Positions 1 through 40,310 of a DNA stretch of 64,000 nt are shown one piece after another. A program made the position numbers and the translations under genes. Location of the stretch: the sequence record OR670491; one strand, 5' to 3'. The stretch's first letter is position 1. Each line of letters opens with the position of its first letter. Source of the DNA: Escherichia phage vB_EcoM_JNE01. Under the pieces are notes generated by a model. It was not told where the DNA came from. It saw nothing but the letters and a program-made list of their open reading frames with translations, and did not search any database.

Positions 1-29
1 ATGCACAAGTGAACTATAAGTGTTGACTT

Positions 30-692
30 ATGGCAAATCTAGTGATACAATGCAAGAAACAACATAAAGAGGGCAAAAAAGTGTATCGATTCATGAAGGA
101 AGTGTTTCAAGCAGTTATCGTTATGATGCTTATCAATTTCCCATGCAGTGCAGGTGTGGAACGAACAAGTGTCATGCGATATTATGAGGAACCTAATGCT
201 CTGGTGGTTATATCAGAGTTAACGGATGGTTCTGCTGACCGTATAATCAATTTTTACGATAAGACCCCATTCAAAACATTAATCATTACATCTCCAGGTG
301 GGAGTGTAGATGCAGGTCTGAAATTGGGTTCTTTAGTGAAAGAAAATGGAATTCAAGTGATTGTTGTAAAGTACTGCAACTCTGCATGTTCCCTCGTGTA
401 CTTCAGTTCACCGAAGGATAAGAGACTAATGGAAGATGATTCAGTACTTGGACTACATAACGTTTCAATTGAAAGCAAAGGGGGTGATGGTGATAACACT
501 TATGTGACTATTCGACAGTTGAAGCAGTTCACAGAGGAATTGTCATCTAAAGTAGGTTTTATGTTTACGTTGTACGCCAGTAATGGTATTCCTACAAACG
601 TACTAATGCGTATCGCAACTGCACGTGGTGATGATGTAATTGTTGTCACTAAAAAAGAATTAGAAGTTTGGGAAGCATCAATCCCTGACTGA
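30..692 (+). CDS. ClpP/S49-like serine peptidase family protein (start uncertain)
   Basis: Motif ITSPGGSVDAG resembles the ClpP/SppA NSPGGSV box; hydrophobic N-terminal segment (FQAVIVMMLINF); possible Ser/His positions (NSACS, GLHNV). Start may be upstream ATG or the internal MKEV. Confidence 0.45.
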   Translation: MANLVIQCKKQHKEGKKVYRFMKEVFQAVIVMMLINFPCSAGVERTSVMRYYEEPNALVVISELTDGSADRIINFYDKTPFKTLIITSPGGSVDAGLKLGSLVKENGIQVIVVKYCNSACSLVYFSSPKDKRLMEDDSVLGLHNVSIESKGGDGDNTYVTIRQLKQFTEELSSKVGFMFTLYASNGIPTNVLMRIATARGDDVIVVTKKELEVWEASIPD

Positions 693-765
693 TTATAATT
701 ACAAGAGGATGATATGTGTTGTACTCCCCTTGTAAAAAACATATAAAATACACTGGGATATTAAT

Positions 766-1026
766 ATGAGCACATTGCTTGATTGGATTTCAATCCTTTA
801 TTATTCAATTTTAGTTTTATACAGTTTCACTATTCTACTTTCCGTTGGAATGTATAAAGAATTTCGTAATGGTTTTTTGAATGAAAAAACTAATAAGTTT
901 GCTTCTAAATTCGAAGCAGTACTTTATTATTGTTTAGCTTCTGGATACATTACCTGTTTAGTACTAATGGGTATTCTTATGTATTTTATGGGAACCATTT
1001 TACAAGTTCTTCCATCTCTAAGTTAA
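766..1026 (+). CDS. small hydrophobic membrane protein
   Basis: 86 aa ORF, strongly hydrophobic, followed by terminator hairpin. Confidence 0.35.
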   Translation: MSTLLDWISILYYSILVLYSFTILLSVGMYKEFRNGFLNEKTNKFASKFEAVLYYCLASGYITCLVLMGILMYFMGTILQVLPSLS

Positions 1027-1032
1027 GTGAAT

Positions 1033-1060
1033 AAAAAAGGGAGCATAAGCTCCCTTTTCT
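1033..1060. terminator. bidirectional intrinsic terminator between convergent genes
   Basis: A-tract, GGGAGC-ATAA-GCTCCC hairpin, T-tract; sits between + gene ending 1026 and - gene ending 1064. Confidence 0.6.
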
Positions 1061-1063
1061 AAT

Positions 1064-1972
1064 TTAAGCTGCACTTACAACATAAGTACATTCAGCAGTA
1101 TGTGAACCATCAACTGTAGTTACGATAACACTAGCATTACCTTCACCAACTAATGTCACTAAACCTGCATTTGATACAGTAAGAACTTCATCGTTAGTAC
1201 TTGACCATACAACATCTTTGTTAGCTGCATTTACTGGGAGTACAGTTGCAATTAGTGTTTCGGTTCCACCAATTGGGCCATTACTTGATGTTTTACTTAA
1301 AGTAACACCAGTAACTGGGGTATTGACAACATATGCACAAGATGCTACTTTAGAACCATCAACTGTTGTTGCGTTGACTGTTGCTGAACCGTTACCAACT
1401 AGAGTTACTAATCCAGAATTAGACACGGTGAGTACTGCGTCATTAGTACTTGACCATACAACTGATTTATTTGTTGCATTTTCAGGTAATACAGTTGCAA
1501 CTAGTGTTTCAGAACCACCAATCTGACCATTACTAGAATTTTTATTCAATGAAATACTTTCGACTGGAACAACAACTGCGACATACTTAGTCGCGTACTT
1601 ACCAGTTTGTACTTCATTGCCATTAGTAAGAATTACTTTATGGGTGAAAAATTTATATGCAAAACCGAGTGCTTCCATAGTTGTTGCATCATAAACTTTA
1701 ACAGCGAATTCATCACGACCAAGTGCACTTGCAATTTCTTGGGCAGTGGCTGATAAATCAAGTAGGTTACGATTTTTATCTCGACCAACCATTGATACTC
1801 TTTGATAAACAGTAGTTGAATCACTATCAACTAAGTCAAACATGCGAGTACTACACTCGTTGATAATGTATAGTTCTTTATCAATTTCTTGAGCACTGTG
1901 ATCAGTTGCTGCAAAAACACAGATACCACCAACGTTGAATGGCAATTCACCAAATTTAGCTATAGGCTTCAT
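1064..1972 (-). CDS. Ig-like (Big_2-type) repeat protein, possible virion decoration or adhesin
   Basis: 302 aa; two tandem ~80 aa repeats (SxNxxIGGxETLxATVLPxNAxNKxVVWSSTNDxVLTVSNxGLVTLVGxG...TTVDGS) typical of bacterial Ig-like domains; only minus-strand gene in window. Confidence 0.6.
   Translation of the reverse strand: MKPIAKFGELPFNVGGICVFAATDHSAQEIDKELYIINECSTRMFDLVDSDSTTVYQRVSMVGRDKNRNLLDLSATAQEIASALGRDEFAVKVYDATTMEALGFAYKFFTHKVILTNGNEVQTGKYATKYVAVVVPVESISLNKNSSNGQIGGSETLVATVLPENATNKSVVWSSTNDAVLTVSNSGLVTLVGNGSATVNATTVDGSKVASCAYVVNTPVTGVTLSKTSSNGPIGGTETLIATVLPVNAANKDVVWSSTNDEVLTVSNAGLVTLVGEGNASVIVTTVDGSHTAECTYVVSAA
1075..1564 (-). repeat. internal tandem duplication (~245 bp unit) encoding the two Ig-like domains
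   Basis: Repeat visible at protein and DNA level (e.g. acttgaccatacaac...agttgcaa(c/t)tagtgtttc...ccaccaat in both copies). Confidence 0.6.
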
Positions 1973-2020
1973 TTGCTTCTCCTATCAATAGAATTATTTT
2001 AATTATTTATAAAATTCAGG

Positions 2021-2049
2021 TTGACAAACATCAACAATCCTAATACAAT
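2021..2049 (+). promoter_or_regulatory. sigma70-like promoter (TTGACA-17-TACAAT)
   Basis: ttgaca at 2021-2026, 17 nt spacer, tacaat at 2044-2049; about 30 nt upstream of CDS 2081. Confidence 0.5.
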
Positions 2050-2080
2050 AGTACTAAATCCAACCGAATAGGAATAAGAC

Positions 2081-2683
2081 ATGACTTGCATCATCGCTCA
2101 CGCAACACGTACTTCATCGTTTATTGCTGCTGACAAGTTAGGTAGCAATAACTTTACAAAAGCAATCCAATCTGAGCCAAAGATCTTTGAGAAAGAGTTC
2201 GATTCTCGTGTATTGGAAGAAGGGTTTATCCCAACAATTCACAAAGATACCATGACAATCGGATACACTACATCGTTCCGTATGGGACAGTTGTTGGAAC
2301 ATTGTCTTGTTCTACCAGAGAAGCAACCAACCCAATCGTTCAAGGAATATCTAGTACAATCAGTAGTTCCAGCTATCCGCACTTTATTCCGTGAAGAATG
2401 GGGTTCTCGTGCCGATAATCAAGATGTAGGTGGTGGTCAGTTCATCATCCTTCATAAGCACAAGATCTATGAAATTCATGAAGACTTCTGTGTACTTGAA
2501 CCAAAAAACAACATCAGTGCAGTTGGTAGTGGTGCATATCATGCAATTGCAGCAATGGCAGCTTATCTAACAGTTGAAACTGAAACTGAAGTTCCATTGG
2601 TTGACCGTATTGGTTCGATCTTTGATATCGTCAGCGATCATGTTGTTAGCGTGAGTTTTGAGCATGACATTCTAAAATACTAA
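2081..2683 (+). CDS. Ntn-hydrolase, proteasome/HslV-like protein
   Basis: N-terminus MTCII (Thr/Cys directly after Met as possible nucleophile); C-terminal AVGSGAYHAIAAMAAYL resembles HslV/proteasome GSGxxxAxxAAxAL. Confidence 0.4.
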   Translation: MTCIIAHATRTSSFIAADKLGSNNFTKAIQSEPKIFEKEFDSRVLEEGFIPTIHKDTMTIGYTTSFRMGQLLEHCLVLPEKQPTQSFKEYLVQSVVPAIRTLFREEWGSRADNQDVGGGQFIILHKHKIYEIHEDFCVLEPKNNISAVGSGAYHAIAAMAAYLTVETETEVPLVDRIGSIFDIVSDHVVSVSFEHDILKY

Positions 2684-2711
2684 TAGGTGCACTAATATAA
2701 TAAGAGAGTAC

Positions 2712-2906
2712 ATGATGACATGGGATATTCTTGACATTGTTTTGCAGTTCTTGATGATTTTGATTGCAGTTGTTTGGTACAATCACATTGTTCTGTTATA
2801 TAATGAAGTTCGTAGTACTAAAGCAGATAAACATTTGACGTACCACATTTCAATCATCGTAAGTGCTTCAATTGTTCTTCTAACGAACTATTTGTTTGCA
2901 CGTTGA
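2712..2906 (+). CDS. small membrane protein
   Basis: 64 aa hydrophobic ORF, stop overlaps the next gene start region. Confidence 0.3.
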   Translation: MMTWDILDIVLQFLMILIAVVWYNHIVLLYNEVRSTKADKHLTYHISIIVSASIVLLTNYLFAR

Positions 2907-2917
2907 AAGGTCAACAT

Positions 2918-3670
2918 ATGTCTACACAATCCTTTTTAGAAAAAGCAGGGGAAAAACGTTTACTGATAATCAGCGGGGCTGGGTTATCGGTTGAAAGTGG
3001 GATGGAGCCATTTCGTTTTGATGATGGCTTATGGGATAACTTTCAAATCAATGACGTGTGTAATATTGCACGTCTTAGTTCCAAATATCATATAGTACAT
3101 GCATTCTATAATACTCTAAGAGTAAAATTAGGTTCGTGTGAACCAAATGCAATGCACTATTACATCAAATCATTAGAGGATCAGTACAAAGATAATTTCT
3201 TACACATGACCTCCAATATGGATGATTTGTACACTCGAATCGGTGGAACCGAGTTGAAGCTTCATGGTAATCTACGAGAAGTTATTAAAAACTACTCAAT
3301 CAATAGTGATGACTATGAAGTAATTGACTGTGGTTATGAACCGTTCATTCCAGAGACTGATGTGTTCTCTAAACCAAATGTTGTTATGATTGGTGAATAT
3401 CATCGTTATGTGGATGGGAACCGTCTTCCTATCTACGAAGAACGAAATGAAGTGTTGCGTAGTCTTACTGAAAATGATACAGTAATTGTTATTGGGAGCA
3501 GTGATACAGTACTGGTATGGTCCAGACTAGCTGGGGCGTTACCTTGTTATAGTGTTACTGTTAACGTCAGAAAGAATGACAATGACTTCCTATTCAATGA
3601 ACGTATCATTAAGCCAGCAACTAAAGCAATTCCAGTACTGGAGCCAATCATTAAGGAAAGAATGAAATGA
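2918..3670 (+). CDS. SIR2-family (sirtuin-like) NAD-dependent enzyme
   Basis: ISGAGLSVESG (GAGxSxxSG NAD-binding motif), TSNMDDL (TQNxD-like), HGNL (catalytic His); no four-Cys zinc module. Start refined to ATG 2918 (RBS gaaagg); ORF-track 2903 is a TTG. Confidence 0.7.
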   Translation: MSTQSFLEKAGEKRLLIISGAGLSVESGMEPFRFDDGLWDNFQINDVCNIARLSSKYHIVHAFYNTLRVKLGSCEPNAMHYYIKSLEDQYKDNFLHMTSNMDDLYTRIGGTELKLHGNLREVIKNYSINSDDYEVIDCGYEPFIPETDVFSKPNVVMIGEYHRYVDGNRLPIYEERNEVLRSLTENDTVIVIGSSDTVLVWSRLAGALPCYSVTVNVRKNDNDFLFNERIIKPATKAIPVLEPIIKERMK

Positions 3671-4224
3671 GTTTGAGAGAAGTACCACTCGGAGAATTTG
3701 GCAAACAAGCAAACTTTGTATTCTGTTACTTCTTTGCACGAAATTGTAATCCATATGAGAATTACGAGTTGAATGATATTCCAGTAGTTAATCTGGTACT
3801 CCTTCAACTCCGTTGGGATGGGTTGATGGGTGGATGTGGAGGAACAGTTGAAGATTCTGATACTTCACTTGAAGCTGCGTTGAAGCGTGAAATCCAAGAA
3901 GAAATGGATTATAATATTTCCATTGAACAGTTGAAACCTCTAAAGACGTTTGAATTGTTCCCTGGTGCTAACACTCATAGCTTCAGTTATGAAGTCACAT
4001 ATGATGAGTTGAAAGCGATTCGTGACGGGTACAGTACTGCTAAACATGCCAGTGCTGAAGTAGCGGGTGTAAATTTATGTCACATTTCTCGATATTCTAA
4101 GGGAAAAAATCGAGAAGCAGGATATAATAATCTCATGACACAAAACTTCATTGGAACAGCTAAGGAAGAATTGCAGTACTTAGTTGAAAATGAAAACTTA
4201 CTTATCAGTTACTTACAAGGGTAG
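3667..4224 (+). CDS. Nudix hydrolase
   Basis: Nudix-box-like GGCGGTVEDSDTSLEAALKREIQEEMD (Gx5Ex7REUxEExGU pattern); start overlaps SIR2 stop (ATGA), suggesting translational coupling. Confidence 0.6.
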   Translation: MSLREVPLGEFGKQANFVFCYFFARNCNPYENYELNDIPVVNLVLLQLRWDGLMGGCGGTVEDSDTSLEAALKREIQEEMDYNISIEQLKPLKTFELFPGANTHSFSYEVTYDELKAIRDGYSTAKHASAEVAGVNLCHISRYSKGKNREAGYNNLMTQNFIGTAKEELQYLVENENLLISYLQG

Positions 4225-4230
4225 AACAAA

Positions 4231-4551
4231 ATGTCATATGAAATGTTCCTCGATGATATTCGTAACCCAGGATACTATTATCCAGGTCGTTCGATGGTTG
4301 TATGTCGTGATTTTAAAAGTGCATGTAAACAAGTTGAAAAATTTGGTATTCCATCATTTATTTCATTCGATCACGATTTGGGCGACATGAATTATGATGA
4401 AAAAACTGGGTATTCCTTCGCTAAATGGATTATTGATTATATGTTTGAGCACGAAATCAAAACACCTTTTGCATTTCATGTTCACAGTAGTAATCCAGTT
4501 GGTAAAGTGAATATCGAACATTACCTTAACAATGCATTCGAAAATTTATGA
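4231..4551 (+). CDS. hypothetical protein (conserved-looking FDHDLG / HVHSSNPVG motifs)
   Basis: 106 aa ORF immediately downstream of SIR2-Nudix pair; family not recognised. Confidence 0.45.
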   Translation: MSYEMFLDDIRNPGYYYPGRSMVVCRDFKSACKQVEKFGIPSFISFDHDLGDMNYDEKTGYSFAKWIIDYMFEHEIKTPFAFHVHSSNPVGKVNIEHYLNNAFENL

Positions 4552-4838
4552 AACAGTTAATTATAAGTGCATTAATAACAATAGCGTTATGTACGGTGTG
4601 TATTCTAATTTTGAATTATATTGACCAAAATTCAAAACAGAATGAACACTTTCAGTCCGCTGTAGTAATTTCATTAGGTCAGTGCAGTAAAAGTGCATGT
4701 TCTTTCACTTACAAAACCGAAGATGGTTATGTAATGTCTGGACTGTCAGAAAAACCAGTATCGATTGGTCAGATTGTTTACCAAAAGTGCTGGGAAACTA
4801 AAGTGCGAGGTCATGCTTGTAGTGATTTCGTGCAATAA
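4548..4838 (+). CDS. membrane/secreted small protein
   Basis: N-terminal hydrophobic segment MKQLIISALITIALCTVCILIL; ATGA overlap with upstream gene. Confidence 0.4.
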   Translation: MKQLIISALITIALCTVCILILNYIDQNSKQNEHFQSAVVISLGQCSKSACSFTYKTEDGYVMSGLSEKPVSIGQIVYQKCWETKVRGHACSDFVQ

Positions 4839-4888
4839 GTAATCTACCAATCGAGTACAAGGATGTACTCATAACTCAAGGATGTTTT

Positions 4889-6328
4889 ATGAAAAAATAT
4901 ACAATTGACACAAACGTACTACTATCTGATCCAAATGCTACCATTGCTTTTGATGGAGCAGCTATCATTCTACCGTTCACAGTACTTGAAGAATTGGATT
5001 CAATCAAAAGTCGTAATGTGGATGTTTCCCGTGATGCTCGTGTTGCAATCCGTAATATTGAAGCAATCCTTTCTGATGCATCACATGAAGAAATTAGTAG
5101 TACTGGTGTTAATATTGCTGATGTTCATACTAATATGAGTCCTGAAAGCAAATTGTTTGTTATTACAAGCGAAGAAGCTGAAGCACTAATTCGCACTGCT
5201 GGTAACGAAGAGAAAGTTCAAACTCTTCTAAAAAGCACAGTACCAGATGATAAAATCATTTTAGTAGCATTAGCAACTGATTCAGTACTGGTTACCCGTG
5301 ATATCAATATGCGTATCAAGGCTCTAAGCTACGGGGTGGAAGTTCAAGATTACCGTCATGATATCGTGATTGGTGATAGTGATTTGATTCACATTGGTCA
5401 ACATCACCTTGACCTACATTTCTGGGATGTGTATAGTAATCTGACTGATGTATCTATTCAGTCTGAACAAGTTGGTCGTCGTTTGTACCACTACATTCCA
5501 AAAAGCTTGATTGAACATATCATGCCACAAAATATTTGCATCGGTGATTACCTATATGATAATGCTGATGTTCTATTTGTGTACGAAGGCCAATCTGCAA
5601 TTGAAGAAGATGATGGTACTTTAACACCAGAAGATATTCTTGTATTCCAAGATATTGGACAATCTGTTGCTCTACGTGCTAAAGTGTGGGATATTAAGGC
5701 TAAGAATATTCAACAAGCACTAGCAATCAACAGTATCCTAGATCCTGATGTTCATCTAACAGTACTGTTGGGTTCCGCAGGTACTGGTAAAACGCTAATT
5801 ACCATTGCGACTGCACTTGAATTGGTTCTTGAGAAGAAGAAATATGACCGTATTATGTTCTCAAAACCACAAGATTCACAATGGGCCGAAATCGGTTTCT
5901 TACCAGGCACTGAAATGGAAAAAATGCTACCACATTGTGGCCCTGCATTGGATGCTTTGGAATTCTTACATAAAGATGATGCATCACCACAAGGTAGTAT
6001 TGAGGAAATAATCAAGCGTAATGTTATTCAGTTCAAAGCATTGAACTTCATTCGCGGTCGTTCATTTACCAACACTATTCTGGTTGTGGATGAGTTTCAG
6101 AACATCACACCTGCTCAGGCTAAGACAATCCTTACCCGTGCTGGCATGAACTGCAAAGTGATTATTCTTGGGAACTTGGCACAGATTGATAGTAAATTCA
6201 TTAGCCCAGTTAACAGCGGCTTAACATATGTTGTTGAGAAATTTAAAAACTGGGATGGTTGTCGAGTAATCGAACTCGAAGGTGTTGTTCGTTCACCACT
6301 GGCAGAATTTGCTGAAGAAAATATGTAA
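4889..6328 (+). CDS. phoH: PhoH-like ATPase with N-terminal PIN domain
   Basis: Walker A LLGSAGTGKTLI, Walker B ILVVDEFQN; N-terminal PIN-like MKKYTIDTNVLL; 479 aa. Confidence 0.8.
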   Translation: MKKYTIDTNVLLSDPNATIAFDGAAIILPFTVLEELDSIKSRNVDVSRDARVAIRNIEAILSDASHEEISSTGVNIADVHTNMSPESKLFVITSEEAEALIRTAGNEEKVQTLLKSTVPDDKIILVALATDSVLVTRDINMRIKALSYGVEVQDYRHDIVIGDSDLIHIGQHHLDLHFWDVYSNLTDVSIQSEQVGRRLYHYIPKSLIEHIMPQNICIGDYLYDNADVLFVYEGQSAIEEDDGTLTPEDILVFQDIGQSVALRAKVWDIKAKNIQQALAINSILDPDVHLTVLLGSAGTGKTLITIATALELVLEKKKYDRIMFSKPQDSQWAEIGFLPGTEMEKMLPHCGPALDALEFLHKDDASPQGSIEEIIKRNVIQFKALNFIRGRSFTNTILVVDEFQNITPAQAKTILTRAGMNCKVIILGNLAQIDSKFISPVNSGLTYVVEKFKNWDGCRVIELEGVVRSPLAEFAEENM

Positions 6329-6337
6329 TAATACGTC

Positions 6338-6363
6338 GGAGTGCTTTTTATAGCACTCCTTCT
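6338..6363 (+). terminator. intrinsic terminator after phoH
   Basis: GGAGTGCT-TTTTAT-AGCACTCC hairpin followed by TTCT. Confidence 0.5.
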
Positions 6364-6374
6364 AAGGAATTATA

Positions 6375-7655
6375 GTGATAATAAAACATCTGTATTATAT
6401 TGACTCAAATTTCAGAAAATACGATAAAGTTTCAAAACTTAATCCAAAATACATTACAGATGTTATTTTCCAAGAAAAATACAACATAGATCGAAACAGT
6501 ACTGAAATACTACAGGATGATATATCATCATATACACCAAACGTAACGGGTTTTTATTATATAAAATACCCAACTGGTGTTAGAAAAGTTTATGCTTTAA
6601 AATGTAATGAGTGCTCTAAAAACTCAGTATTACATGGCGAAGGAATATATCTGGTTCACTTGTCACACATCAAAAACGGAATCATTTCGTGTGGGTGTGC
6701 AAAACGCACAAACTGGACACCATATCAATATTACATAAAAATGATATCAGAATGTAAAAATCGTAATTGCATTTTTTTAGGTTACGATAAAAAACACTTA
6801 CGTTTATATTGTCTCGAACATGGTTACTGGAATACCACATCCAAAGCACACTTCTTTAATGGGAAAGGATGTAGTAAATGTGGGGACACCAATTCAAGAG
6901 TGTTGAGAACAAAAGACAGTTATTTTCATATATCTAAATTTAAAATCTTAAATGCGTATAATTATCGACGTTCCGACAAGATTGATAGTAGTGGTCGCTT
7001 GCGTTATTGGGAATATATGTGTAAGAAATGTTCACATGATGAGTATGTTAGGCTCGGTTTGTGTAATGGGATTTTTACATCATTTAATAGTGATTTAGTA
7101 AAGGGTAAGAAATCATGTCGTTGTTCAAGTAACTATAGATGGACAGAAAAACAGCGTGAATATCAAATCACCAAACTCCTAAAATCCAATTTTCCTCACA
7201 TTAGCTTTAAAGGTTGGGTAAATAGTTATAAAAATATCCATAGTAAGGCGATTTTAAATTGTAATATTCATAATAATTATACGCAAAAAGTAAACTACAT
7301 ACTTAATAATAATTGTGGTTGTCCACAATGTGCTGGGATGACACAGACAGAATGTTATATAAATGTAATATATGATGTGTTTCCAATTGCTATAAAATAT
7401 GGAATTTCAACACATACAAAAAACCGCGTTTGTAGTCAAAATAATAAATCACCATTTGACGTTATTAATCATGGAATTTGGGATTTTGAAAATCCATATT
7501 TATGCAAAATGGCAGAAAATGAATGCAAGCGAACGGTAAGTCGTGTTCTATCAGAACGCGAGCTACCTGACGGATTTACTGAAACCGCTGAAGTGAAATA
7601 TATTGATGATATAATTAAAATATATGAAAGCTGGGGTGGTATCAAACGAAAATAG
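6375..7655 (+). CDS. Cys-rich repeat protein (zinc-ribbon-like repeats), possibly mobile-element derived
   Basis: 426 aa; at least four repeats of CxxC...HGxW...CxxC; markedly AT-richer codon usage than neighbours; GTG start with RBS aagga. Confidence 0.45.
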   Translation: MIIKHLYYIDSNFRKYDKVSKLNPKYITDVIFQEKYNIDRNSTEILQDDISSYTPNVTGFYYIKYPTGVRKVYALKCNECSKNSVLHGEGIYLVHLSHIKNGIISCGCAKRTNWTPYQYYIKMISECKNRNCIFLGYDKKHLRLYCLEHGYWNTTSKAHFFNGKGCSKCGDTNSRVLRTKDSYFHISKFKILNAYNYRRSDKIDSSGRLRYWEYMCKKCSHDEYVRLGLCNGIFTSFNSDLVKGKKSCRCSSNYRWTEKQREYQITKLLKSNFPHISFKGWVNSYKNIHSKAILNCNIHNNYTQKVNYILNNNCGCPQCAGMTQTECYINVIYDVFPIAIKYGISTHTKNRVCSQNNKSPFDVINHGIWDFENPYLCKMAENECKRTVSRVLSERELPDGFTETAEVKYIDDIIKIYESWGGIKRK

Positions 7656-7726
7656 TAGTTTTTTGTAGACAAAACGAAAAATAGTGATATAATAATGTTA
7701 TTAACAACAAAGAAGGAGAATCAATC

Positions 7727-37912: not shown

Positions 37913-38116
37913 ATGATTGAAATTAATGCTGATGTATATTGTAGTGCTGCACCAAATTACTTCATTTATGCACTAAGTACTTTTGGTGATACAGAAGGTG
38001 AAACTTTTGTTTTAGTAGATAATACTACATGGTACAAAACAAGTAATAAAATTCCGAAAGATGTTTTGGAAACTTATGTTCGTATTGAAAATAAAAACAT
38101 ATATGTAAATTTATAG
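37913..38116 (+). CDS. hypothetical protein
   Basis: 67 aa. Confidence 0.4.
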   Translation: MIEINADVYCSAAPNYFIYALSTFGDTEGETFVLVDNTTWYKTSNKIPKDVLETYVRIENKNIYVNL

Positions 38117-38123
38117 GTAAAAT

Positions 38124-38534
38124 ATGATTGAAATGGAAGGAACTCTGGTGTATGATCCAGATCGTGGCACTATGAAAAAGAAGAAGGACTTCTGGTTAGT
38201 ACTGCAACTTCCATTACAGTTGGTTCGATACTACCAGTACTTCATCAGAACTGACTTACATATTGATATTAAAGACCCACAATGGGGAGCACATGTCAGT
38301 ATCGTTCGTGGTGAAGTGCCACCAAATCCAGAGTACTGGAAAAAGTACGATGGTATGAAAGTTAAGATTAAGTTCGAACCTTTCATCGAAGAAGTAAAAG
38401 ACAATAAGAAACCTGGGTCATTCTTTATCATAGAGTTTGAAGATGATTTCATTGCACAAATTCGTGATGAACTTGGTTTAGCATCTAAATATTTCAAATA
38501 TCACATCACCATTGGTAGAACATACTACGATTAA
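38124..38534 (+). CDS. hypothetical protein
   Basis: 136 aa. Confidence 0.45.
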   Translation: MIEMEGTLVYDPDRGTMKKKKDFWLVLQLPLQLVRYYQYFIRTDLHIDIKDPQWGAHVSIVRGEVPPNPEYWKKYDGMKVKIKFEPFIEEVKDNKKPGSFFIIEFEDDFIAQIRDELGLASKYFKYHITIGRTYYD

Positions 38535-38701
38535 TGTGGTTATTTGGTAAATAGGTCTTGATATAACTAAAAAGTATGCTATACTACTTAAATGTTCCAA
38601 AGAACAACTGAGTACTGTAGAAAGTCCAATGAGGCTTTTGCAAATGGCCTCTTTGCCCTCTTTGTGATTGCTCATTGTTAACAACCAACAAAGGAGGCGT
38701 T

Positions 38702-39628
38702 TTGAAAAAAGCGAAAAAAGCACTGAAAACTAAAATTGCCGTAGGCGTATTAGTTTCATCAGCCCTATTCGCTGCTATTGGATTTTATGGTTTTTCTCAA
38801 AGTGATCATGTACCATCATTAGACGAAAGTCAGGTGCATAATTTAAAACCACAGTTTACTCAAATTCAAAAGCAGGAACTACCACAGGTATCAGTACCAA
38901 AAGCAGTTCCAAGCAGCGAGAAACATTATACGGTTCAACCTGGAGATAGTTATTATTCTATTGCACAGAAATTTAAACCTAAAAATGTACAGATTGAAGA
39001 TTATGTCATTTTGTTGAAGAACATCAACTTAAATGCAACTCTTCATACTTCTCAGGGTATCTTTATCCCAACAAAAGAGGATTTGAAGAACGTATTGTTA
39101 CCAGATGTGACTGTACTGTTTGATTATAAAGATCCAGAAATTGTCAATCACATCAAAGAAGCTGAAGGTTCTATTGAATTTCAGTCCAAGAACAAACGAC
39201 GTTTACTTGGTGGGAAAGTTGGAGTTCCATATCGAAATTCTAAATTTTATCCGTATCGTGATATAAAAGGTAACTTCACTATTGGGTACGGACATTATCT
39301 TGGAAAGAAAGAATCAGATGCAAGTAAGTATCGTAATGGTATTACGAAGTCACAAGCACATAAACTTTTATTGTCTGACATGGAACGAACTAATAATGAT
39401 TTAGTTTTATTATTGAAGAAAAGAAATGCAACAAACCTTACGGCTGAACAGCAACGAATTTTATTTGAGATGGCATTTACATTAGGAGTTGATAAGTTAA
39501 ATACTTTCAATAAATTATGGAAAAGCGTTGATAATCAAAATGATAACAAGTTCAAAAAAGAAATTAAGAATTCTCTATGGTATCGTCAAGTAGGAAACCG
39601 TGCAGAATTGTTAGTTAGTAATTTGTAA
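38702..39628 (+). CDS. endolysin: GH24 (T4-lysozyme-like) muramidase with N-terminal TM/signal-anchor and LysM domain
   Basis: TM segment IAVGVLVSSALFAAIGFYGF; LysM-like YTVQPGDSYYSIAQKF; C-terminal TIGYGH...RxxLFEMAFTLG matches T4 lysozyme family; probable TTG start 38702 with RBS aaggagg. Confidence 0.7.
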   Translation: MKKAKKALKTKIAVGVLVSSALFAAIGFYGFSQSDHVPSLDESQVHNLKPQFTQIQKQELPQVSVPKAVPSSEKHYTVQPGDSYYSIAQKFKPKNVQIEDYVILLKNINLNATLHTSQGIFIPTKEDLKNVLLPDVTVLFDYKDPEIVNHIKEAEGSIEFQSKNKRRLLGGKVGVPYRNSKFYPYRDIKGNFTIGYGHYLGKKESDASKYRNGITKSQAHKLLLSDMERTNNDLVLLLKKRNATNLTAEQQRILFEMAFTLGVDKLNTFNKLWKSVDNQNDNKFKKEIKNSLWYRQVGNRAELLVSNL

Positions 39629-39677
39629 TTTACAATAAAGGATGATATGTATCATCCTTTATTTTTAAGGTAAAAAT

Positions 39678-40310
39678 ATGATATATAATGTTGGTATAAA
39701 TGATGTACCAGGTGATTCTAAATCGGATAGTGATGGTTATTATATATATGTGAAATGGAAAAGTATGATTAAACGATGCTACTCAGTTGAATATCAAAAA
39801 ATACACCATTCATATATTGGAACAACTGTATGTAATGAATGGCTTACATATTCAAATTTTAAAGATTGGTATCTAAATAATTACATAGACGGGTATGTTT
39901 TAGATAAAGACTTGATATCGGGTGATTTACAAGTATACTCACCAGTGACATGTTCATTTGTACCACAAGAATTAAATTGTTCTATTCTTGAAAGTAATAG
40001 TGCTAAAACAAAACTACCATTGGGTGTGTCATATCAACAGAAAACTAAAAATATGATAAATGAACGTTCGAAACCATATGATTCATATATAAAAATGTAT
40101 GGTAAGTTGTATCGTCTTGGTAGTTATGAATGTCCTGAACTTGCACATAAAGAATGGCAAATCGCCAAGAAAAAATATCTCGAAGAACTCATTGACAGAT
40201 ATAAAAATTCTGTTAAAATGGAAGTCATAGAAGGTATTCAGAAACGAATTGATATATTACATAATGATATAGTCAATGACGGTGTTACAATAACAATCAA
40301 TAAGATATAA
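39678..40310 (+). CDS. AP2-domain protein, homing-endonuclease-like (possible mobile ORF)
   Basis: WKSMIKRCY...YIGTTVCNEW motif plus AP2-like LGVSYQQKTKN...YGKLYRLGSYECPELAHKEW; AT-rich relative to neighbours. Confidence 0.45.
   Translation: MIYNVGINDVPGDSKSDSDGYYIYVKWKSMIKRCYSVEYQKIHHSYIGTTVCNEWLTYSNFKDWYLNNYIDGYVLDKDLISGDLQVYSPVTCSFVPQELNCSILESNSAKTKLPLGVSYQQKTKNMINERSKPYDSYIKMYGKLYRLGSYECPELAHKEWQIAKKKYLEELIDRYKNSVKMEVIEGIQKRIDILHNDIVNDGVTITINKI

Follow-up and report, generated by a model that had tools for sequence, protein, structure and literature searches.

Two probable accessory peptidases, one ClpP-fold and one proteasome-like, at a jumbo coliphage locus

Two peptidase genes at the left end of the window

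The stretch of DNA analysed here, hereafter the window, comprises 64,000 nucleotides of Escherichia phage vB_EcoM_JNE01 (OR670491), a jumbo coliphage of ca. 350 kb from the Asteriusvirus/RaK2-like group. It is collinear, at 95-99% identity, with positions 78060-139824 of Escherichia phage Turkey5 (PQ471516), has a GC content of ca. 36% and carries nearly every gene on the plus strand. At its left end lie two plus-strand genes for protease-fold proteins, ORF1 and ORF2, which a sequence-only reading had taken for a membrane-anchored ClpP/S49-like peptidase and an HslV-like N-terminal nucleophile (Ntn) hydrolase. Both frames exist, with family matches that set them apart from chance ORFs, and the elements that had drawn attention to them (TSPGGSV in ORF1; the MTCII start and the GSG...AAMAAYL segment in ORF2) are all present in the translations. 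The features of ORF1 are:

23..51, plus strand: putative sigma-70-type promoter of ORF1 (TTGACT, 17 nt, TG, TACAAT; 10 of 12 consensus positions matched, extended -10 at 44-51)
66..73, plus strand: Shine-Dalgarno sequence AAAGAGGG, read directly from the sequence, 7 nt before GTG 81
81..692, plus strand: ORF1, ClpP-fold serine peptidase of 203 amino acids, predicted to be exported (phrog_26024 'protease', E = 1.2e-73)
81..152, plus strand: predicted Sec signal peptide, residues 1-24, ending in VFQAVIVMMLINFPCSA before G (hydrophobic core plus A/C-S-A motif, conserved in the family)
291..302, plus strand: SPGG motif, residues 71-74, ClpP-type oxyanion/substrate-strand loop (invariant in the close family; aligns with ClpP 'NSPGG')
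375..389, plus strand: C99-N-S101-A-C103, nucleophile Ser101 between two cysteines (invariant in 71 of 71 sequences)
456..458, plus strand: His126, counterpart of the catalytic His of ClpP (invariant in 71 of 71; aligns with the His of ClpP 'IHQP')

The first frame had been read as 30..692, which is a real gene over-extended by 17 codons. ATG 30 falls between the -35 (23-28) and -10 (46-51) elements of a near-consensus promoter, AAAGAGGG precedes GTG 81, and both the Turkey5 annotation and the lengths of the homologs (197-208 amino acids) agree with GTG 81, which we therefore regard as the true start. From there the protein opens with a hydrophobic core of 13 residues, after which come P-[AC]-S-A and then G, so that the supposed membrane anchor, hydrophobic as it is, looks more like a cleavable signal peptide. 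An N-terminal hydrophobic segment recurs in 64 of the 71 wider relatives and a lipobox-like motif in 17, while C99 and C103 are the sole cysteines in 21. To judge from these features, ORF1 is probably exported via Sec and secreted rather than anchored. Its mature chain would begin ca. six residues before the first core strand, the signal peptide standing where ClpP (MEROPS S14) has its N-terminal axial loops; a probably secreted enzyme would therefore be ATP-independent, despite the database name.

Across the 71 family sequences, whose identity falls to 15%, six columns alone never vary, namely G73, G74, C99, S101, C103 and H126, to which the close family adds the remainder of SPGG. S101 and H126 align with the catalytic Ser and His of ClpP, both in PDB structures and in the phage's own canonical ClpP, and thus occupy the canonical positions of the ClpP fold. 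The Ser-Lys dyad that defines S49/SppA is disfavoured since no Lys is conserved; the ClpP half of the earlier label stands and the S49 half falls, i.e., by its aligned residues ORF1 is S14/ClpP-like (Ser-His) and not S49/SppA-like. It would nevertheless share with the S49-type membrane and periplasmic proteins SppA and NfeD a ClpP/crotonase fold that works outside the cytoplasm without ATP. Unlike in ClpP, the nucleophile is set within C-x-S-x-C, where a C99-C103 disulfide would probably stiffen the nucleophile elbow, and the third (Asp) residue appears to be poorly conserved.

Profile scores point in the same direction. ORF1 reaches at most 22 bits against ClpP models with cut-offs of 228-308 (TIGR00493, 308.6; PRK00277, 249) and 22.8 bits against NCBIfam NF045542 Clp_rel_HeadMat (cut-off 120), matches Pfam CLP_protease marginally (22.0 bits, cut-off 20.2) and has weak Pfam matches to NfeD1b_N and SDH_protease. 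As it lies far below the ClpP and head-maturation cut-offs, we treat it as a separate family with a ClpP fold. An exhaustive profile search returned 1,634 cluster representatives at E <= 1e-3 and only 33 at 1e-10, and tblastn found relatives in 48 phage records, of which 47 measure ca. 310-390 kb; of the phages in isolation, only RaK2/Asterius-type jumbo phages carry the family. In the libraries and literature that we searched there was no characterisation of this putatively exported C-x-S-x-C ClpP-fold family, and a literature search on a periplasmic ClpP-like family (COG3904) gave nothing informative. The PADLOC defence models matched neither ORF1 nor ORF2, whose relatives are variously labelled 'protease', 'head maturation protease', 'ClpP/crotonase-like domain protein', 'HslV family peptidase' or 'proteasome subunit'.

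The features of ORF2 are:

2021..2049, plus strand: putative sigma-70-type promoter of ORF2 (TTGACA, 17 nt, TACAAT; 11 of 12 consensus positions matched)
2081..2683, plus strand: ORF2, proteasome-like group I (HslV/BPH/AAH-type) Ntn peptidase of 200 amino acids (phrog_1040 'peptidase HslV family', E = 2.6e-21)
2084..2086, plus strand: Thr2 codon, the Thr1 nucleophile after Met removal (Thr in 84 of 84 sequences; aligns with HslV Thr1)
2132..2134, plus strand: Asp18, equivalent to Asp17 of HslV and the proteasome (invariant in 84 of 84; aligns with HslV GDG)
2180..2182, plus strand: Lys34, equivalent to Lys33 (invariant in 84 of 84; aligns with HslV K33)
2192..2236, plus strand: residues 38-52, a 15-residue insertion that extends the S3/S4 beta-hairpin (Asteriusvirus clade-specific)
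2261..2263, plus strand: Gly61, equivalent to HslV Gly45 and proteasome Gly47 of the oxyanion hole (invariant in 84 of 84; aligns with the glycine of HslV 'AGF')
2525..2533, plus strand: G149-S150-G151, HslV-type 'GSGG' loop (aligns with HslV 'IGSGG')

The AF2 model of ORF2, built on 84 homologs, reached a pLDDT of 94.8 and a pTM of 0.90. It shows the sheet S1-S11 and helices H1-H4 by which Fuchs et al. (2021) delimit the proteasome-like fold, the four helices spanning residues 66-75, 87-106, 152-169 and 173-187, and the sequence supplies the accompanying catalytic set (Thr1/Ser1, Asp17, Lys33 and oxyanion Gly47). Foldseek assigned a probability of 1.00 to HslV, BPH, Anbu and proteasome beta, HslV giving the best E-value (1.7e-9) and BPH the best TM-score (0.71/0.78), with Anbu and proteasome beta subunits next; the family profile ranked the PDB chains as HslV (1.5e-8), BPH (7e-4) and proteasome beta (1e-3). 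No Pfam family was matched, Pfam Proteasome included. The view of ORF2 as an HslV-like Ntn hydrolase whose nucleophile follows the initiator Met is borne out by these data, as is, for both proteins, the conservation of the catalytic residues among homologs.

Since 82 of the 84 family members begin with MTC, ORF2 lacks a propeptide, its Thr being exposed by Met removal alone, and thus needs no further autoprocessing. Gly61 opens an invariant G-x-T-x-SFRM-x-Q motif, while in the loop at 149-151 the first glycine never varies, position 150 holds Ser in 34 sequences and Cys in 45, and G151 is kept in 83 of 84. The insertion columns are occupied in more than 80% of Asterius-type sequences and in fewer than 30% of the others; the region is modelled as two strands (35-45 and 51-62) beside the active site, S3/S4 being a known insertion site that adjoins it (PMC8665760).

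Like HslV, its best PDB match by sequence, ORF2 is a compact protein without C-terminal extension that has Thr1 directly after Met and equivalents of Asp17, Lys33, Gly45 and the GSG loop. Unlike HslV, it has an invariant TTSFRMGQ motif, a Cys after Thr1 and, in its clade, the S3/S4 insertion, and no hslU was found in the window plus Turkey5 1-350000 or as a conserved neighbour at 80 bacterial loci of ORF2 homologs. Because its scores fall far under the equivalog cut-offs (18.9 bits for NF003964, cut-off 137; 18.2 bits for TIGR03692, cut-off 157.75), in alignments that cover only residues 122-167, we do not regard it as an HslV ortholog.

Family members measure 175-200 amino acids in the 84-sequence set and occur in 196 phage records (tblastn), at ca. 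63% identity in Asteriusvirus and ca. 30% in T5-like Epseptimavirus, and also in Aeromonas, Vibrio, Xanthomonas and Moorella phages. At least 377 bacterial species carry them, among alpha-proteobacteria, Actinobacteria, Myxococcota, Firmicutes and CPR bacteria, e.g., Gluconacetobacter, Devosia, Azospirillum, Streptomyces, Actinoplanes and Paenibacillus. This distribution is that of the AAH cluster, described from alpha-proteobacteria, Actinobacteria, many phages and, via phages, Firmicutes, whose members are compact and free of insertions and C-terminal elements (PMC8665760); it suggests that ORF2 belongs to these phage-spread stand-alone proteasome homologs, its clade differing by the one insertion. 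AAH and BPH proteins resemble ORF2 in being compact and stand-alone, without propeptide or known ATPase, and no substrate is known for any of them (Fuchs, Alva and Lupas 2021, PMC8665760). BPH, the source of the highest TM-scores, has yet to be reported in phages.

As a separate observation, Aeromonas phage 2L372D (L010 4001-5454) has two adjacent 'peptidase HslV family' genes, for 183 and 294 amino acids. The longer may encode a C-terminally extended homolog of the PPH/RPC type, in which case the two products could conceivably form a proteasome-like phage complex of two subunits. The second of these genes was set aside as only a marginal match to ORF2 (E = 0.002), and the 64-kb window contains no such paralog.

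Gene neighbourhood, head module and promoters

Two further genes lie between ORF1 and ORF2:

766..1026, plus strand: small membrane protein of 86 amino acids, between both protease genes in all Asteriusvirus-type relatives examined
1064..1972, minus strand: virion protein with two Big_2 Ig-like domains (Big_2, E = 8.8e-28), between ORF1 and ORF2 and not part of the pair

The standard Asteriusvirus order is ORF1 homolog, 86-residue membrane ORF and ORF2 homolog, followed by genes for Sir2, NUDIX, cREC, a membrane protein and PIN-PhoH. The adjacency of ORF1 and ORF2 is conserved only inside this group, and in T5-like and Aeromonas phages the ORF2 family is present without ORF1. The 86-residue ORF matched no Pfam or PHROG family and is conserved within Asteriusvirus only; its counterpart in SHEFM2K, M2K_0653 (44% identity), overlaps the start of the HslV-like gene by 4 nt. 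A module of small membrane protein plus HslV-like gene across phage groups was considered and rejected, as orf60 of the T5-like S132 is unrelated to the 86-residue ORF (E = 32).

The product of 1064..1972 shares 40% identity over its N-terminal 118 residues with phAPEC6 gp347, a virion protein identified by mass spectrometry at 75% coverage, and probably decorates the head or the tail. The homologous gene of SHEFM2K and phAPEC6 is located upstream of ORF1; the gene orders indicate that in the window and in Turkey5 it was moved between the 86-residue ORF and ORF2 by rearrangement.

This is the one virion-protein gene to intervene in a neighbourhood said to be free of portal and capsid genes. 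In the collinear Turkey5 the head module spans 196749-202835, with the portal gene at 196749, a T4-type prohead core protease at 199765-200385 and the major capsid gene at 201660, ca. 118 kb away from ORF1 and ORF2. The 62 proteins detected in phAPEC6 virions include the prohead protease gp227c, the small protein gp347 and the PhoH-like gp341c, but neither gp346c nor gp345c, the homologs of ORF1 and ORF2. These observations support the earlier judgement that neither ORF1 nor ORF2 is the prohead protease.

Promoter motifs may hint at when the two genes are read. The two best sigma-70 matches within positions 1-3000 lie directly upstream of ORF1 and ORF2, the latter also having AGGA at 2071-2074 ahead of ATG 2081, and TTGAC-N17-19-TACAAT has just two occurrences in the window, one at each of the genes, where 0.35 are expected. 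Turkey5 was handled in segments (L003 24424-25119 = Turkey5 74424-75119; L005 14493-16778 = 164493-166778), and there the same motif type precedes the ORF1 homolog (L003 28082-28110) and the ORF2 promoter is conserved (L003 30081-30109). The relaxed motif TTGAC-N17-19-TAYAAT was found 63 times in Turkey5, on the plus strand in 49 of the 51 sites listed, with a concentration in small-gene regions (14, 15 and 13 sites in L002, L007 and L008), and sites also lie upstream of the genes for canonical ClpP and a ClpA-like protein. Such sites are probably the early promoter set of the phage, and their sequence suggests that ORF1 and ORF2 are transcribed early by the host polymerase.

Further along the window several features stand apart from the pair:

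2712-2906, plus strand: hydrophobic 64-residue ORF directly 3' of ORF2, kept in Turkey5 and SHEFM2K (M2K_0651), without a family
2903-6328, plus strand: conserved block of Sir2, Nudt16-like NUDIX, cREC_REC (cyclic-phosphate-processing receiver), small membrane protein and PIN-PhoH
6375-7655, plus strand: 426-residue ORF with CapR-homology domains (phrog_681 'endonuclease'), an insertion absent from Turkey5
37923-40309: endolysin region, at ca. 78% identity to Turkey5 or unaligned, with flanks at 98-99%

The block at 2903-6328 looks like an NAD/ADP-ribose or nucleotide-signal processing set, and a homolog of its PhoH-like protein is packaged in phAPEC6 virions. Window positions 6331 to 7700 correspond to Turkey5 84392 to 84441, and the ORF within them, which separates the PhoH gene from the following one, has the look of a mobile homing-endonuclease gene. 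The endolysin region may be a hotspot of recombination or exchange.

Unfoldases and other proteolysis genes

A search for HslU and ClpX covered stop-to-stop segments of at least 120 amino acids in the window and in Turkey5 1-350000, with the E. coli HslU and ClpX sequences serving purely as AAA+ probes. Neither was found with these probes, the sole match being a 761-residue ClpA-like protein. The proposed check for a partner ATPase elsewhere in the genome thus turned up an unfoldase of the ClpA type and no HslU. Across 80 bacterial loci the ORF2 homologs had no conserved neighbour; the top neighbour clusters proved to be antisense ORFs over the match itself or Polyangiaceae-specific synteny. 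In T5-like and Aeromonas phages the ORF2-family gene sits among nucleotide-metabolism genes, with no unfoldase adjacent.

The full-length ClpA-like double-AAA+ unfoldase (Turkey5 164493-166778) aligns with residues 19-733 of E. coli ClpA (E = 3.7e-180) and has 'SIGM' where ClpA has the ClpP-docking 'SIGL' loop. Turkey5 also encodes a canonical ClpP at 74424-75119 (Pfam, E = 6.6e-41), 3 kb upstream of the position matching the left end of the window, so the phage probably has its own ClpAP machine, in which this separate ClpP is the natural partner of the unfoldase. The 'ClpS adapter' annotated at Turkey5 249084-249629 had no Pfam, NCBIfam or PDB support and is left aside as unverified. Genes of the ClpP, ClpA and ClpS type have been reported from RaK2-like jumbo phages, with ClpA conserved among them; patchily distributed peptidases were suggested to target host proteins, as jumbo-phage ClpP and ClpS probably do (PMC6102473, PMC7824862). 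The relevant passages of Attai 2018 (PMC6102473) and Iyer 2021 (PMC7824862) discuss canonical cytoplasmic ClpP and ClpA and do not single out a C-x-S-x-C paralog or a proteasome-like gene.

A third peptidase-type module in the window consists of two genes that are 'hypothetical' in Turkey5:

58856-60187, plus strand: weak MoxR-type AAA+ ATPase of 443 amino acids
60264-61688, plus strand: DUF2201_N putative metallopeptidase with a VWA domain (E = 6.6e-36)

The former is an HslU-sized P-loop ORF and was rejected as HslU, being a weak MoxR-type AAA+ paired with the VWA/metallopeptidase gene.

Two accessory peptidases and the alternatives

We consider it probable, at roughly 0.6, that ORF1 and ORF2 are two independent, early-expressed accessory peptidases that take no part in head maturation and probably act in different compartments. 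The reading builds on the folds, the conserved catalytic residues, the gene context, the missing homologs in the phAPEC6 virion and the absence of HslU and ClpX genes, and it agrees with the accessory proteolytic functions proposed earlier, both proteins having protease folds with intact catalytic residues.

For export, the disulfide, oligomeric state, timing and substrates, the course of events we would expect is as follows. Host RNA polymerase would transcribe ORF1 from the separate consensus promoter in front of it, and the protein would cross the membrane via Sec with the help of its 24-residue signal peptide, to become a periplasmic, ATP-independent ClpP-fold serine peptidase. Ser101 would attack with His126 as general base, a poorly conserved acid at 184/185 may complete the triad, and the SPGG loop would provide the oxyanion/substrate strand. 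As ORF1 lacks pore-gating, ATPase-docking axial loops and the periplasm has no ATP, its most likely targets would be envelope or periplasmic proteins that are exposed or unfolded, whether they belong to the host or to a superinfecting phage. ORF2 would stay in the cytoplasm, where host methionine aminopeptidase would remove Met1 and expose the Thr, which would act with the equivalents of Asp17, Lys33 and the oxyanion Gly as in HslV and proteasome beta. By analogy with HslV or BPH it would probably form stacked rings, as a stand-alone AAH-type enzyme with no dedicated phage ATPase.

Several points weigh against this account. The conserved order of ORF1, the 86-residue membrane ORF and ORF2 hints at a functional link, which a two-compartment model leaves unexplained. 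The N-terminus of ORF1 could, as a sequence, also be an uncleaved signal anchor, and its third catalytic residue is poorly conserved (an acid at 184/185 in 21 of 71 sequences, within a poorly aligned region), residue 185 being acidic in 16 of 20 close relatives. The promoter statistics are modest, with 7 of 100 shuffles reaching two matches, and taxonomic distribution is the single line of evidence behind the AAH assignment of ORF2. Since HslV on its own, in the absence of HslU, cleaves peptides only very weakly, a stand-alone ORF2 ring may need an activator; the E. coli and Salmonella hosts have HslU, a possible partner, and the phage has the ClpA-like unfoldase.

A partnership with host HslU is at the heart of the alternative in which ORF2 stands in for HslV as a double hexamer, either docking onto host HslU to yield an ATP-dependent protease of altered specificity or titrating it away from host HslV, which we hold to be rather unlikely. 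It would suit a phage that lacks its own HslU in hosts that have one, and ORF2 shares with HslV the missing propeptide and an identical catalytic set. HslV chains are its best matches by sequence and by Foldseek E-value and its relatives are annotated as HslV family; yet the equivalog scores are far below their cut-offs, only the C-terminal third aligns, Pfam Proteasome is not matched, and the best TM-scores go to BPH, which has no known ATPase partner. HslV-only phage genomes, noted earlier (PMC7823757), speak for substitution, whereas the occurrence of the ORF2 family in Actinobacteria, for which Table 1 of Fuchs et al. lists no HslV (PMC8665760), the lack of a conserved ATPase neighbour and an insertion adjoining the active site speak against it. 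The S3/S4 insertion is in turn the main argument for a specific Ntn enzyme, i.e., a connectase-like ligase/transpeptidase or a site-specific processing hydrolase, since connectase has the same catalytic residues and a specificity lid at exactly that site (PMC8665760). The insertion of ORF2, however, extends a beta-hairpin rather than forming a helical lid, and most family members lack it. The model also retains the full set of flanking helices, four in number, through which HslV and BPH make their ring contacts, and its nearest structural neighbours are ring-forming proteases, all of which makes this proposal very improbable.

It is improbable, too, that ORF1 is a second cytoplasmic ClpP subunit (ClpP2/ClpR-like) forming mixed rings with the canonical ClpP under the ClpA-like ATPase, its N-terminus being structural. 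Turkey5 does encode both partners, with a docking loop kept as IGM (IGL in ClpA), the three genes share a promoter type and ORF1 is 35% identical to the canonical ClpP over the catalytic core; but a signal-peptide-like N-terminus with an A-S-A site replaces the axial loops, the wider relatives include lipobox proteins, the invariant Cys pair is typical of oxidising compartments, the ClpP scores remain far under threshold and the phage relatives are restricted almost entirely to genomes of jumbo size. A role of ORF1 as head-maturation (prohead) protease or scaffold-processing enzyme is already largely refuted and retains next to no probability. ClpP-fold head maturation proteases exist in phages, three relatives of ORF1 bear that label and weak matches lead there (phrog_1684, E = 0.009; NF045542 Clp_rel_HeadMat, 7e-5), but the score is a fraction of the 120 bits that, together with a location in the head module, mark ClpP-related head maturation proteases, and a T4-type prohead core protease already adjoins portal and capsid. 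Moreover, gp346c is missing from phAPEC6 virions, and ORF1 has a predicted export signal, an early-type promoter and metabolic genes as neighbours.

Returning to two independent accessory peptidases, we tentatively, and with more doubt than conviction, extend that reading as follows. ORF1 would represent a large family of exported, ATP-independent, disulfide-clamped ClpP-fold Ser-His peptidases captured by RaK2/Asterius-type jumbo phages for early remodelling of the host envelope, and ORF2 a phage-adapted stand-alone proteasome directed by its S3/S4 insertion to a specific host target. Envelope remodelling, if true, could mean, e.g., the destruction of receptors or of incoming proteins of competing phages.

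As both families are on record from earlier work (PHROGs, GenBank annotations, Fuchs et al. 2021, Iyer et al. 2021), the novelty is low and the finding is mainly an annotation correction, the existing labels of both proteins being probably misleading. If active, the exported C-x-S-x-C family would add an envelope-directed protease class common to phages and many bacteria, and the coliphages offer a tractable system for finding the substrates of phage proteasome homologs. Together, ORF1, ORF2, the ClpA-like unfoldase, the canonical ClpP and the MoxR/metallopeptidase pair make up an unusually rich proteolysis toolkit, which is probably directed at the host.

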